Below are positions 2,706 through 17,217 of a stretch of DNA of 18,188 bases, in pieces. The notes under the pieces were generated by a model, which did no database searches, was not told the origin of the DNA, and was given only the letters and a program-made list of their open reading frames with translations. The stretch spans positions 1 to 18,188 of the forward strand of contig CAXGUD010000063.1 of NCBI GenBank assembly GCA_964012805.1. Direction: 5' to 3'. The translations under genes were made by a program, and so were the position numbers. The stretch is from an uncultured Bacteriovoracaceae bacterium. Lineage in GTDB: Bacteria; Bdellovibrionota; Bacteriovoracia; Bacteriovoracales; Bacteriovoracaceae. Every line of letters starts with the position of its first letter. Within the stretch, counting starts at the first letter, position 1.

Positions 2706-5700
2706 TTGAAGTTAATTTTTTTTATTTTTATTTTTATCTTTTTTAATACCTATTCTTTTTCCAAGGAAAATGTCCTCATTTTAAAAAATGGAATTGGTGA
2801 ATATCAAATTGGACCTTTTGTTGAGGTTCTAGAAGATAAAACAAACAAGCTCACCATTAAAGACATTGAAAATGGACAATATAAAAAAGAATTTAAAAGA
2901 AATAAGCTGGATACGATCGAGCTTAAAACAGGGACGTCAACTTACTGGCTAAAGATTAAAACTGAAAATAAAAGATTAAAGGAATCATATAAAAATGGAG
3001 AACCTTTAACCTGGTACTTTTATTTTAATCATTATGTTTTTGACAAAGTTACTTTTTTTAAAAAAAATTCAAAAGGAAATGAATGGCTTAAAAATTATTC
3101 AGGATTTGACATACCTGTAAAAAAAAGAGAGGTACAATCATTACTTCCTACGTTCATAGTTAACCTAAAAGAGAGTCAGACATTTTATTTTAAATTACAA
3201 AATGACTTATTTAAAACATATGAAACAATGATTCCTTTAAAAATTCATTTAAGCTCCCCAATAAATTATTATTATTTTAAAAGATTTTTATATATTGTTA
3301 GCTTCCTTTTCTGTGGGTTTTTATTAACCTTATTTATTTATAACTTATTAAATTTAATTGAAACCAAAAGCATAACAGACTCCTATTATACAGGATCTCT
3401 ATTATTTTGGTTTCTTTGGTGTTTCCACTTTTATGGCCACAGTCACCTTTACCTTTATCCAAATTATCGATTTTTATTTTGGGATTTCAGTTGGTATCTT
3501 GCGGCCGGCTTTAATCTTTTCTTTAGCCCTTTTTTGTATAGCTATTTATCTTTTAAAAATAACAAAGAGCGATATGCGGAAGTTATTAAATTTAAATGGT
3601 TTTTTGTTTACTTTGGATCGTATACCTTCCTTCAAATTATTTTATCTAAGGTTAACTATCTTGTGGGCTTTTATTTTGGTCTATCAAATACTATTTTATG
3701 TTGGGGAGCTCTTCTTTTAATTTTAATTTATTTTAAAAAGAAACAAGTTAAACCTGCCCAAATACTTTTACAAGCTATGTTAATTTTTTATTTACCTTTA
3801 GTCATTTGGATGCTTACTTTTTTAAATGTTATACCTTCCAATACTTTCACAGACAATATATGGATGTTAGGCAACGTAGGCTTACAATTGGCCCTTTCAA
3901 AAATACTTATCAATAGACATAAGAACCTCCAAGTAGAGTTAGTCAAAAAAGAATTTGAAGCAAAACAATTTGAAAGAGAGGCCGAAAAGAAACTAAAAGA
4001 TGAAGTGAGAAAAGTTCGTTTAATTATGAGTGAGCAAACTAGAACTCTTAAGACTCAAAATAATTTGCTCACCGAAGCTGATTCTAAGAAAACGGAATTC
4101 TTTAAAAATATTTCTCATGAATTAAGAACCCCCCTGACTCTTATTTTAAACCCCTTGGGAAAGCTCCTTGATCAGGATTCAAGAAATGAGGAATTGATCA
4201 TAGTAAATAGAAATGCTCAAAGGCTCTACAAGCTTGTCAATCAACTTCTTGATTTTCAAAAAGTTTCATCAGGTGAAGTGGAAGTTATTATCAAAAAGGT
4301 AAATCTTTTAAATTTTCTTGAAAAATGCGTAGAGAGTTTTAAAAATAATTTAGAACATAAAAAAATTCAATTTAGCTTTTTATTTAATAAAAAAGAAGTG
4401 ACTCCGTCTCTTTTAAGAAATAAAAAAATCTTTATTAAAGGAGACCTAGAATCCATAGAAAAGATCGTTCAAAATTTTCTTTCAAATGCTTTTTATCATA
4501 CCCAAGAAGGATCTTCTATAACATTAAGTTGTGACATAGGCGGCGAAATTCCTGAAGGAAAAGTAAGAATCTCAGTTATTGATGAAGGAACAGGAATTGC
4601 TAAAGAACAGCAAGCCTTTCTATCTGAAACCTTTTCCCACAATAGTACAGGAATAGGTCTTGCCGGAGGTGGAAAAGGACTTGGTCTACCGCTTGTAAAA
4701 GAATTGACGGAAAGGTTAAAAGGAGAAATGAACTTTACTAGCGAGGAAGGTAAAGGAAGCCATTTTTATGTCGAACTTCCAATTTACCATTACAACCTTA
4801 TTGATTGCCTTATTGTTGACGATGAAGAAGATATTAGAGTCATTTATAGTGACCTCTGTGAGCAAACAGACTTTATCGAAACTTTTAAAATTGCAAAAAG
4901 TGCAGATCAAGCCAGAGAGTTTATGGAAGCATTTTCTTTCCAGGTTATTCTTAGCGATGCAGCCATGCCCGGAGAATCAGGCATAGACTTTTTAAAATGG
5001 GCAAGTCAAGCTTCACCTGATTCCAAACGCTACCTTGTCACAGGGAAGGCTGATGAGAAAATTCTTCAAGATTCAGTCAATGAAGGAAAAGTGGATGGAG
5101 TGATTTTTAAACCGTGGTCAAAAAAAGAACTTCTAAGCAAAGTTAAATCAAGTTTAGAAGAAGAGGAATCTGCCAATATAGAAGACTATCTAATGACCAA
5201 CTGGAGCTTTAGTCAAGATAATGAAAATGATGATGATGACCTAGAAGAAGATCATTTTGATGGCGATTTAATGGAAGGCTATACAGAAGTCGTCCTCATT
5301 GTTGATGACCTAGGTGATATGAGAAAAATGATGGCCAATGCCTTAAAAAGCAGTAACTTTCAAACCATCGGTGCTAAAAATGGAAAAGATGGGTTAGAAA
5401 AGGCCCTCAAATATAAGCCTGACCTTATTGTCACAGACTGGGTTATGCCCATTATGTCTGGCCCGGACCTCATACGTAAACTAAGAGAACATAAAGAGTT
5501 TAAAAGTACTCCTATAGTTCTTTTAACTGCAAAAAGTGATGAAGAAAGTAAAATTCTTGGAAGTGAAATCGGTGCTGATGGTTTTTTAGGAAAACCCTTT
5601 AATGAACACGAATTAGTAAGCGTTGTAGGAAATCTTTTAAGTCTTAAATCGAAAGAAAAAGAAGTCATTAACTTAAATAAGCATATTACGGAAAATGTCC

Positions 5701-13776: not shown

Positions 13777-13853
13777 AGGAGTGTAGCTCAGTTGGTTAGA
13801 GCGCTACGTTGACATCGTAGAGGTCCCCAGTTCGAATCTGGGCATTCCTACCA
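13777..13853 (+). tRNA. tRNA-Val(GAC)
   Basis: Acceptor AGGAGTG/CATTCCT, D-arm GCTC/GAGC, anticodon stem CTACG/CGTAG with loop TTGACAT (GAC at 13811-13813), T-loop TTCGAAT, encoded CCA. Confidence 0.97.
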
Positions 13854-13975
13854 TTACCGAACCAAATAAATTCTTCTAATTACTCACTCTATACATTGAA
13901 AATGCCCCAAAATAAAAGCTTTTGCTGGTTCGGGAACTGAATACTTACAATTTTGAACGTGCTTTTTTTCAAAAT

Positions 13976-14004
13976 AGGTTAGGAAAAACAAAGTGCCTTT
14001 TTTA
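13976..14004. repeat. 29-bp direct repeat, copy A
   Basis: AGGTTAGGAAAAACAAAGTGCCTTTTTTA, 27/29 identical to 15992-16020. Confidence 0.85.
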
Positions 14005-14015
14005 AAATTAAATAC

Positions 14016-15978
14016 TCATTTTAATTTTCCAGGTTTTTGGTGGAGGTCAGTATATTTAATAACTATAGTTGAGATACAAGAAATTTCTCTCCAAGCCTCA
14101 TTTCCTCCAGGTCTTGAAAATGTTCCTCCTCCTCCAGTCCAGGAGGATAAAAATCCAGCAGAACTCGAAGAAGATTCTGTACTTCCTTTTTTTGCCTTTG
14201 GAAATTGTTTTGAAGATATCCCATATAAATGATTCCATCTAGTAATTTGTTTTTTTTAATCCAAGTGCCAATAAATAAGGTGTCATATCATTAGAAAAAT
14301 ATGGTTCTTTTTTAGAAACCTCTTTTTTTAGAAAGTGCCTAGCTTGTTCAATTTTTTTTCTAATTTTAATTCTTTCTTTACTACTTTTACTTTTAGCTTT
14401 ATTGAACATACTACTTAATATAGTTAATTTGACGAACACTGCAGCTGGAATAAAGAGATGGTTTTCTGTATTTAATAAAATAAAATATAGGTGGATAAAA
14501 AACCCATATATAGCAACAATGTAAAAAAACCGCTTGTAGACTTTTTTGGATAAACTTATATTTCCTTTTAATTTATTTCCATACAAATAAATAGCGAATA
14601 GAATTACCCAGATTTTAATATCAATAAAAAAAGGTGGGAATGAATGAGTCAAGGCCAAACCTAAAATTAATAGTAAGCCTGCAACAAAAGAAAAGGAAAA
14701 AGTCCTTAGGTAGTAATTAATTGAAATATTTTCATTTTTTAGTTCGGGGTGTAATTTTGCCAAATCCTCAATGTTCTCATTTAATTCTTCTAAAATGGGT
14801 TTTTTATAATTGAAAATATGGTATCTTTTGATTTCATTTATAGTTACAGGAGCATCACCATTTATAAAAAAGTAATCTTTTATAATAACTTCTGTGCCTT
14901 TAAATTCTGAAATAGGTATCAAAGGTATTATTGTTATTACTTTTCTTCTAAACCAACTTTTTGACTTTTCTACTTTAATATCTATTTTATTATTACTAAT
15001 AAGTTTAGTTAAAATAACCATCACTTCATTTTTATCAATTTTTCCGTCCCAAACTGAAGCGACAAGCTCAGGCGGATAAATTTTAAGATTATTTTCAATC
15101 CAATTAGGATTGACATCATTGAATTTTTCTTCAATGAATCTATTTATTTTTTCTTCATGATTAATTAAATCCAAAAAGAAACGATGTATAGAGAAGATAA
15201 ATATAAAAAACAGGAATAAGCCGGTTAAGTATAAGTACTTCCCTCTAAATTTTTTTATATAAGGGAGGCCCTTTTTTACAGGAGTGACTTGCTCCAATCC
15301 TAGCTTTTTAATTATGTCAGGTTTTAAATAAAATGAAAGTTCAAATTTATCATCAACATTTAAATTATAAGAAAAGTATCTACCCTTTCCCTTTAAAGGG
15401 TTTTCCCACACATCATGAAAACTTATTTCAACATTTAATTTTAGAGTTTTTGAATAACTTTCGAGATAACCAGGACCACTTGTATTACGATCGAAAGGTG
15501 GATGGATAGCAAAATTATGCTTAAGATAATAATCAGAATCAATTTTGGTAATAACACTTTCGAAAATATAGTATATTCGATATCTTTTTACCTCATAGAC
15601 AAATTCTTTTTCCTCTGGGAAGGGGCGCTAAATGTATTGCCCTTTATTCCAAATCATATATTGGTTTACTTTACTAAGGTCTCCATAAGTTAAAAGAGTC
15701 CATGAATCATTTGAAGGGTTATACACTTCAAATTTTTTAAGTCTTATATCCTTATTTCCTGGTAAATGGAAAAAACGTGTAACACTATCAAAATTGCCCT
15801 TGAAAAAAGCTACTAACTCTTCTTTAATTTCAAGTTCACCCTTTTTATTTAGAAAAGCTTTTACCTTTATATCTTGCCAAAAAAATTCTCGTGCTTGGCA
15901 ATTAAAACTTAATGAAAAAAGTAAAATTATTGTTGCATATTTCAAAATTTTCCTTGATATATTTTTATAAATTATCAT
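14016..15978 (-). pseudogene. DUF2207-like predicted membrane protein, disrupted by an in-frame TAG and a frameshift
   Basis: The 116-aa and 390-aa ORFs are in the same frame, separated only by TAG at 15628-15630 (reads on as RPFPEEKEFVYEVKRYRIYY...FHDVWENP). Removing one A from the A8 run (14250-14257) extends PYLLALGLKK into QITRW...SSSSSAGFLSSWTGGGGTFS...W to TGA at 14016-14018, restoring about 653 aa. The N-terminal GELEIKEEL...F-x-G and the Ser/Gly tail fit DUF2207. Confidence 0.8.
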
Positions 15979-15991
15979 TTAAAACTTCTTA

Positions 15992-16020
15992 AGGTTAGGA
16001 AAAACAAAGCGCTTTTTTTA
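15992..16020. repeat. 29-bp direct repeat, copy B
   Basis: AGGTTAGGAAAAACAAAGCGCTTTTTTTA, first 18 nt identical to copy A, 2016 bp apart. Confidence 0.85.
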
Positions 16021-16098
16021 TCAAAGCTACATCGCTCATTAATCAAATATATTGCCAAAAAACTCAATATTGAAATTGAAAAGACTACCAGCGCGTCC

Positions 16099-16260
16099 CT
16101 ATTTCGCAACATACGCAATGTAAGAATAGTCAGTATCACAACAGTCATCGTATTCGTTTTGATATTCAAATTCGTGGTACTCATTAAGACTCCCACTTTC
16201 TTTTTCAGGTGGCATAATCTCGGCCATAGCTAATGAAGATTTATTGTTTTTATCATCCAT
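16099..16260 (-). CDS. Unannotated 53-aa acidic Tyr/Cys-containing small protein or gene remnant
   Basis: ATG 16260 to TAG 16101-16099: MDDKNNKSSLAMAEIMPPEKESGSLNEYHEFEYQNEYDDCCDTDYSYIAYVAK. Lies directly downstream of an extended -10 promoter. Confidence 0.4.
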   Translation of the reverse strand: MDDKNNKSSLAMAEIMPPEKESGSLNEYHEFEYQNEYDDCCDTDYSYIAYVAK

Positions 16261-16279: not shown

Positions 16280-16307
16280 ATTATAACAAAGTACAATATT
16301 TAATCAA
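16280..16307 (-). promoter_or_regulatory. Sigma70 promoter with extended -10
   Basis: Minus strand TTGATT-N16-TATAAT with TG at the extended position (TGtTATAAT, 16288-16280). Confidence 0.55.
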
Positions 16308-16416: not shown

Positions 16417-17217
16417 ATGAAATCTTTCTTATTTATTTTCATTTCTACTCTTCTTTCTTTAACGGCCAATTCCAAGGTAATAACTATATGTTATGAAAAT
16501 AGGGAAGTTGCTCCTTATTGGATGGGAAATAGTGCGACAGTACCTACTCAACTACCTGGTTTGGGTGTTGAACAAATACAGTACCTAGATAAGCTTGAAA
16601 AAAATGCCAAGTTTACTTTTAAGCGGTTTCCCTGGAAAAGATGCCAAAAAATGCTTAAACGAGGCAAAGTTGATGGAATTATCGGGAGTTATAAAAGGAA
16701 AAGAGAAGACATTGGTGCTTATCCTAAAAATAACTTTGGGGGTATAGACGTAAATAGGTCTATTTCGAAAAGAAGTGCGTCACTTTTGTTTAAACTAAAA
16801 AATGATCCTATCAAATTTGAAAATGGAAAGTTTATAAACCTTAAAAACAGAAGGGTTGGCGGTGTTTTAGGTTATGGAAGTAATTCTAAGTTAAGAAAAT
16901 TAGCAAAAAATGTCTTAGAGGTAAGAGATATGGATAGCCTTTTTACTATGCTTGAAAAAAAGAGACTCGCTGCCGTTTTAGTAAAGGAACTTCCTTCAAA
17001 AGCTTATTTTTTACAAAAACCTCTCAAGGAAAAGATTTTTATTGAATTTGGTTATATTGAAAAAAAGAAAGCTGTCCCTGGAGCTTACCTCATTCTTTCC
17101 CACCAATTTTATAAAAATAATGAAAAGCTTTCTGAAAAACTATGGAATCATATGCCTGAAGTTAGAAAAGAGGTGCCAAAGATCGCACAAAAATATTTTT
17201 TAAATTTAAAAAAATAA
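16417..17217 (+). CDS. Periplasmic substrate-binding protein (SBP family 3 / polar amino-acid type), orphan
   Basis: Signal peptide, APY, G-x2-VE, PWKRC-x3-LKRGKVDG, GGVLGY and MLEKKRL motifs of the type II periplasmic binding fold. Confidence 0.85.
   Translation: MKSFLFIFISTLLSLTANSKVITICYENREVAPYWMGNSATVPTQLPGLGVEQIQYLDKLEKNAKFTFKRFPWKRCQKMLKRGKVDGIIGSYKRKREDIGAYPKNNFGGIDVNRSISKRSASLLFKLKNDPIKFENGKFINLKNRRVGGVLGYGSNSKLRKLAKNVLEVRDMDSLFTMLEKKRLAAVLVKELPSKAYFLQKPLKEKIFIEFGYIEKKKAVPGAYLILSHQFYKNNEKLSEKLWNHMPEVRKEVPKIAQKYFLNLKK

Follow-up and report, generated by a model that had tools for sequence, protein, structure and literature searches.

Introduction

Rolling-circle insertion sequences of the IS91/ISCR type represent the closest described systems to the locus analyzed here. 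For IS91 and IS1294, the accessible parts of two publications report one-ended transposition at 1–14% (PMC13181058, PMC9330008), and in IS91, IS801 and IS1294 a host-derived target tetranucleotide is described to adjoin the ori (PMC13181058). Trapping of IS801 yielded, according to the available text of the respective study, miniatures and rare carriage of flanking DNA, with 290–1431 nt of adjacent DNA carried in 0.7% of the trapped insertions, and most genomic fragments were ascribed to reorganisation (PMC3189936). In ISCR1, variable genes are located behind the oriIS and are driven by outward promoters, as stated in the consulted sections of PMC6218425. Gene capture of the ISCR type is central to the spread of resistance and has mostly been inferred from sequence.

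The window, i.e., the whole analyzed stretch of 18,188 nt (contig CAXGUD010000063.1 of assembly GCA_964012805.1) from an uncultured Bacteriovoracaceae bacterium, contains two direct repeats enclosing a gene next to a tRNA gene. A first-pass annotation had interpreted this arrangement as a single-gene cassette handled by a non-integron capture and excision system. Based on genome comparison, the repeats are considered here, with a probability of roughly 85%, to be right-hand ends of the oriIS type that belong to an undescribed rolling-circle insertion sequence of the IS91/ISCR family; the locus itself is the likely decayed product of this element's activity beside tRNA-Val.

Datasets and Definitions

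The genome harboring the window (G000; 4.5 Mb, rated 100% complete) was compared with two congeners, G001 and G002, showing completeness values of 72% and 68%, respectively. C-numbers denote contigs of these three genomes, L-numbers individual loci or contigs compared, and X-numbers sequencing runs, which were represented by their assembled contigs; eight of the 19 runs holding matching sequence were covered. Such contigs drop rare forms, and results on empty sites and circles rest on them; those of runs X12 and X19 do not reach the repeats. The set of repeat copies comprises 80 entries (65 from G002, ten from G000 and five from G001), obtained from 85 rows by removal of five low-scoring or duplicate ones. 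The motif matrix was trained on 34 congener copies, genes around copies were called by means of a dicodon scorer, and seven uninformative gaps were dropped from the synteny comparison.

Results and Discussion

Two Direct Repeats Enclose a Gene Beside tRNA-Val

The direct repeats at positions 13976–14004 and 15992–16020 are identical at 27 of 29 positions, lie 2016 bp apart and constitute the sole such pair in the window, confirming the first-pass coordinates. Shuffling the window 150 times with an order-3 Markov model yielded no direct pair of at least 27/29 identity, and the exact 18-mer of the repeat alone was reached in 18 of 300 shuffles. Since contigs of six runs (X2, X3, X7, X9, X10 and X14) span one or both junctions, the pair is not an assembly artefact, an option that had been raised earlier. 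The reported spacing was likewise reproduced, with 13 nt between the upper copy and the ATG at 15978 and 11 nt between the TGA at 14016–14018 and the lower copy. The neighboring tRNA gene was identified as tRNA-Val(GAC) (13777–13853, forward strand); it bounds on the left a variable region in which G000, G001 and G002 carry different genes. Next to this tRNA gene, both congeners have other genes and no repeat.

The previous description of a 29-bp repeat unit holds for the lower copy, which represents an isolated 29-bp stub of an IS91/ISCR-type oriIS end on the reverse strand without significant extension beyond 28–29 nt. In contrast, the upper copy comprises the last 126 bp of an IS91-type element (15991–16116, reverse strand) featuring the oriIS-type motif at its end, and then runs into a transposase stub. 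An 8-bp hairpin immediately outside the lower repeat (13950–13975) is no stronger than in shuffles (z 0.4–0.5), no attC-like or other stable fold was found at the repeats (z 0.6–0.9), and the Rfam search returned only tRNA and a chance-level ylbH match. Positions 14025–14050 (forward strand), located inside the non-homologous tail of the enclosed gene, weakly resemble an inverted piece of the element body (match 14025–14043, E 3.6).

The Repeat Corresponds to the End of an IS91/ISCR-Type Element

On the side of the upper copy, 91 bp of a transposase 3' end are retained (16123–16213, reverse strand), matching the C-terminus of a 500-aa transposase of G002 (residues 467–496) with 73% identity at the amino acid and 88–90% at the nucleotide level; approximately 100 bp between this stub and the element end are deleted relative to intact copies. 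The G002 transposase matches PF04986 (E 2e-31) and PF14319 (E 2e-15), both over cut-off, and the full protein reaches 117–118 bits on the NCBIfam IS91 model NF033538 (cut-off 125) and is far under ISCR clade Ia. Transposase matches were detected in 23 of 121 family genomes.

In the genome of the window itself, the 5' part of the transposase (90% identical) is located at a contig end. The whole gene is present in locus L095, which is 99.25% identical to contig C32 of G000 over 1736 nt and shows the order tRNA-Met, whole transposase, motif 208 nt after the stop codon, small gene and second copy of ~170 nt; the same arrangement was found on contig C91 of G000. Within L095:2290–5200 (C32 start, C91 start, L038, L002), the transposase lies directly behind tRNA-Met, being split by an assembly gap in G000, and an end, a 118-aa gene and a 170-nt miniature form a second end-gene-end tandem. 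On contig C149 of G002, the motif is located at +209 from the transposase stop codon, and in three plasmid records the ISCR oriIS was found 228–240 nt after it. Read on the transposase strand, the repeat consists of an A-tract, GCGC/GCAC and TTTGTTTTTCCTAACCT, and the ISCR records show an A-tract, GGCG/GTGG and TTTATACTTCCTATAC; common to both are the A-tract, GG/CG-TTT and a TTCCTA.AC pattern. The ISCR oriIS printed in the consulted portions of PMC8894482 and PMC13023784 agrees with the ISCR records. Applied to transposase loci of other genera, the genus matrix gave a clear score at one of 14.

Furthermore, the left and right ends of the 33 aligned miniatures do not resemble each other, the flanks differ beyond a common (C)TT and, as judged from the alignment, neither terminal inverted repeats nor target duplications are present. 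The upstream regions of five transposase copies, compared in the search for terIS, diverge at different points. Behind the motif, 67 of 80 copies carry CTT, although these bases had been included in the matrix; 22 of 24 left ends have NTT in front of them. At all eight junctions inspected (hand-picked, with homology starting within 14 nt), the right-hand CTT is absent from the orthologous host DNA; positions beyond CTT are near background and look random. At left junctions, the host supplies CT just before the miniature in two of four cases examined. Locus L094 has, in place of the terminal motif, a short inverted stretch similar to the left end of the miniature, and in G002 (L035:1500–1660) the transposase gene and a DEAD/Hrq1-like helicase gene start back to back.

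The Element Remnant Truncates a Thioesterase Gene

Next to the transposase stub, approximately 21 codons of the 5' end of a 4HBT thioesterase gene (16197–16260, reverse strand) are fused to it in frame over a 17-nt microhomology (16197–16213), and a 53-aa fusion ORF (16099–16260, reverse strand) combines the thioesterase N-terminus with the acidic C-terminus of the transposase. Contigs of X7 and X19 carry different sequence beyond 16197, which in X7 reads as an intact thioesterase gene. A promoter-like site at 16280–16307 (reverse strand) was found as annotated previously; it is not exceptional when considered alone, since 15 such sites were found versus 13.0 expected, and it is conserved before the intact gene in G001. 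Judged from this conservation, the putative promoter belongs to the thioesterase gene truncated by the IS remnant and does not represent a resident cassette promoter; transcription from it would continue through the remnant of the IS as far as the DUF2207 gene. A solute-binding-protein-like gene (16417–17217; PF00497, below cut-off), situated between the carbamoyltransferase and thioesterase promoters, is absent from the orthologous G001 locus and therefore represents a separate insertion or loss.

The Enclosed Gene Is a Pseudogene with Intact Sites in Sister Strains

The enclosed gene (14016–15978, reverse strand) probably derives from a DUF2207-family membrane protein gene: the window protein has no direct match in Pfam, but all 12 tested homologs match PF09972 and/or PF20990 (E ≤ 0.01). 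The family comprises 235 proteins at E ≤ 0.001, of 620–680 aa, the best being 36% identical; full-length alignment to homologs gave 18–34% identity. The frameshift near 14250, for which the first-pass annotation had corrected, is present, and an in-frame TAG at 15628–15630 interrupts the gene as well. Moreover, the two best homologs, of 653 and 645 residues, can be aligned only up to their residues 624 and 625, respectively, i.e., the alignment ends 20–29 residues early, and the Gly-rich C-terminal tail ending 109 of 111 homologs of 600–700 aa is missing, so that the 3' end of the gene looks clipped just before the lower repeat. Contrary to the earlier description, the bracketing by the repeats is consequently not precise, the gene being a pseudogene without its conserved C-terminal tail.

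The GC content of the gene amounts to 28% versus 39% in the core genes to its left. It has no match in 150 family genomes, the search for close homologs returned only the gene itself among 7997 candidates, and profile matches were obtained in two of 400 phylum genomes, neither accompanied by such ends. Based on these sequence features, the gene looks foreign or acquired, and an IS91/ISCR-type element likely brought in or rearranged it in the region.

In other runs, X10 shows TGG at the stop position 15628–15630, and X9 and X14 are without the extra base at 14250; thus, sister strains carry intact sites of the gene. In X9, owing to two changes, the lower and upper repeats agree at all 29 positions. 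This identity could be ancestral or result from later exchange, since X10 retains the 27/29 form. Among the contigs of the eight runs covered, neither a joint skipping the gene, corresponding to the one-repeat empty site that had been predicted, nor a joint of the 2016-nt circle was found; a joint 14365–15946 in X2 and X3, one side of which measures just 23 nt, was taken as foreign. Empty sites for three other loci of G000 were not found in G001 and G002 (72% and 68% complete).

Miniature Ends Are Dispersed and Clustered in Two Congeners

The repeat proved to be a dispersed genomic element, which the first-pass annotation had listed as an alternative. By profile search, eight long copies and two stubs were detected in G000, corresponding to ~10 copies in 4.5 Mb, and G002 contains at least 65 copies in both orientations. 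The matrix scan yielded 13 matches in G000 versus two in the reversed genome, and 75 matches in 257 kb of congener DNA, in stretches chosen for having matches, versus none in the reversed sequence. The motif is frequent in the two congeners and also clustered: in G002, 58 matches fall within 135 kb of eight contigs chosen for having matches, and none within 391 kb of other DNA of this genome. The family is narrow, since all 11 loci of the exact 28-letter pattern among 185,579 species genomes belong to one record, a "Bacteriovoracales bacterium". In the literature searched, to which subscription papers, supplements and ISfinder did not belong, no report on such miniatures in Bacteriovoracales was found.

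All 80 copies keep the right end, with 16 extending up to 50 nt, 29 extending 51–149 nt and 35 extending at least 150 nt. The 33 aligned long copies fall into subfamilies and share one left boundary ~170 nt from the end, which in full copies corresponds to a position ~48 nt behind the transposase stop codon. An internal deletion joining ter and ori ends, considered for the miniatures in view of a left end preceding a transposase 5' stub on contig C40 of G001, was rejected; a plain right-end fragment is the simpler origin because the left boundary is also found ~48 nt behind the stop codon in full copies.

Only two of the 80 copies lie inside called genes. Downstream, copies face 39 gene starts and 39 stops, and upstream 39 stops and 34 starts; neighboring copies within 6 kb are in the same orientation in 27 cases and in opposite orientation in 23. 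Of 47 G002 copies, 20 share a contig with their closest sequence relative, compared to 7.5 by permutation. These counts fit local spread of the miniatures and not a polarised cassette array. Regarding replication strands, no overall bias was observed (41 G-rich to 39 C-rich), although short contigs are weakly skewed.

Dense miniature clusters with inverted and stacked pairs are located on G002 contigs C79, C100, C136, C149, C15, C161 and C162 (L030–L033, L073–L080), and the orthologs of genes in these clusters are scattered over many G000 contigs. In G000, contig C85 (L003) holds a small graveyard of element pieces at 226–440, 2306–2413, 3126–3234 and 4132–4203, including a miniature with a second short end stacked directly behind it and a 616-aa gene whose end is fused to an internal fragment of the transposase. 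One end adjoins tRNA-Arg (L007, G000 C37, 22773–22804), and another adjoins sequence matching the upstream region of tRNA-Ala (L036, G001 C64, 5832). The occurrence of ends near tRNA-Val, tRNA-Met, tRNA-Arg and the tRNA-Ala region hints at tRNA-neighboring hot regions.

Origin of the Locus and Competing Explanations

The locus is a relic composed of a truncated IS, a truncated thioesterase gene and a pseudogenised passenger. In the proposed order of events, an IS91-type copy would have come to lie between the thioesterase gene and tRNA-Val, and its end would have become linked to foreign DNA at a point 13 nt ahead of the start codon of the DUF2207 gene, like the variable genes after oriIS in ISCR1. 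A second end may then have arisen 2 kb away by local one-ended transposition, or have arrived attached to the gene, the tail of which was clipped. Subsequently, a microhomology deletion would have connected the 5' end of the thioesterase gene with the 3' end of the transposase gene. Ends of this kind would be processed in trans by the HUH transposase, whose gene is located next to tRNA-Met in another part of the genome. No intermediate allele for this order was found at the locus.

As a possible, if doubtful, special case of this reading, the gene and the lower end could constitute an ISCR- or Helitron-like mobile module. TnpA acting in trans would nick one end and displace a strand across the gene; at the other end, this strand would be closed to a single-stranded circle of 2016 nt, which would then be inserted behind an end already present, and the mosaics of G002 would result from repetition of these steps. 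The direct orientation of the ends, their full identity in X9, the second end-gene-end tandem on C91 and three copies beginning directly behind the CTT of another copy are consistent with such a module, as is the IS801 precedent for carriage of adjacent DNA in the accessible text of PMC3189936. Among G002 gaps holding an end, 12 of 13 show a break in synteny with G000, compared to 38 of 119 control gaps, and, of 70 congener copies, 18 have both flanks mapped; nine of these involve another element piece, and in the other nine, unique on both sides in G000, the flanks map apart without exception. However, end-free gaps within the same dense contigs are also broken in three of six cases (Fisher p 0.07), so that ends may simply gather in plastic regions, and recombination between copies, end-promoted deletion or misassembly would yield an identical synteny and flank picture. 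The lack of circle and empty-site joints in the run contigs also argues against the module, as does the comparison of 49 orthologs with the ends of G000, in which no gene occurred at two places with the same end junction; moreover, the portions of PMC3189936 consulted attribute most IS801 fragments to reorganisation. The enzyme acting in trans postulated in the first-pass annotation survives only as plausible, unproven ISCR-type mobilisation by the IS91 transposase, through which a 2016-nt circle could still be made between the two ends, and not as an unknown recombinase, the repeat being an oriIS-type end.

Two unrelated insertions are rather unlikely. In that case, the gene would already have been present, two independent insertions would have placed an end on each of its sides, the lower end would have been eroded to 29 bp, and the direct repeat would be incidental. 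Strong conservation of the end throughout the family, with two of 83 other copies differing from the upper 29-mer at two positions, as well as the frequency of stubs of up to 50 nt (16 of 80) and the few copies inside called genes, agree with this scenario. Against it, none of the 83 other copies equals the upper 29-mer, but the lower copy of X9 does, and two independent landings 2 kb apart in a genome with so few copies would need local spread or a hot region.

A genus-wide, Helitron-like gene shuffler would be a far-reaching extension of the module and is regarded as unlikely. Here, self-propagating, transposase-less IS91 ends of ~170 nt would have the DNA between neighboring ends copied by TnpA in trans into single-stranded circles that insert behind existing ends, building mosaics of accessory genes, with the window as a one-gene module; the CTT-ended terminus may follow a polarity or target rule unlike that of canonical IS91.

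The original model of an unknown site-specific recombinase acting on 29-bp att-like sites, with a dedicated resident promoter, is largely refuted and hardly credible. It drew on the tight spacing to start and stop codons, the tRNA neighbor and the foreign-looking gene, but the repeat forms the terminus of a longer element derived from an IS, the promoter belongs, as far as conservation tells, to the thioesterase, neighboring genes show no polarity and the gene's two family homologs lack such ends. Its non-integron character was upheld (TIGR02249 best 26.5 bits versus a cut-off of 265; no attC-like fold). The co-occurring recombinases it called for did not emerge: G000 contains one PF00589 tyrosine recombinase match (369-aa frame, C2), and an integron integrase, a resolvase or a second tyrosine recombinase was searched for in this genome and not found. 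Finally, a duplicated leader or promoter is highly unlikely. The end contains a -10-like hexamer 13 nt before the ATG, but no promoter was called there, the lower copy is directed into the 3' end of the tRNA gene and half of all copies face a stop codon.

If the preferred reading of decayed IS91/ISCR-type ends is taken at face value, the lesson for annotation is that orphan IS91 ends can appear as short direct repeats closely flanking a single gene. If the miniatures carry genes, they would provide a natural, non-clinical system with dozens of copies for testing ISCR-type gene capture.

Comparison with Known Systems

As in integron cassettes, similar sites enclose one gene that is almost devoid of a leader; the locus differs from them in that IntI, an attC-like fold (z 0.6–0.9) and polarity are lacking. 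An HUH transposase with a zinc-binding N-domain, two unlike ends and the absence of inverted repeats and target duplication are features in common with IS91 and IS1294 as described in the available text of PMC13181058, whereas no target tetranucleotide is evident here outside the conserved CTT.

The transposase is 36–39% identical to those of ISCR1, ISVsa3/ISCR2 and ISCR27 over 93–97% of its length, and the terminal motif, its distance from the stop codon and variable genes directly behind the oriIS (PMC6218425, consulted in part) also resemble ISCR elements. Unlike these, the motif is one base short of TTCCTATAC, a T-run replaces the ISCR middle, and no integron 3'-CS or resistance gene is present; moreover, ISCR1 neighbors are 84% co-oriented according to the same portions of PMC6218425, compared to 39 of 78 here.

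The right-end miniatures of IS801 in Pseudomonas syringae (229, 360 and 679 nt) are, as far as the accessible text of PMC3189936 extends, similar in being 5'-truncated, in all keeping the right end and in forming discrete length classes, as well as in the use of a transposase in trans and the occasional carriage of adjacent DNA. The family described here differs in that one congener contains at least 65 copies, which have diverged, fall into subfamilies and show local kinship. These sequence relationships suggest copy-to-copy spread of the miniatures in this genus, whereas those of IS801 were judged, in the same text (PMC3189936), to arise afresh from full-length elements.
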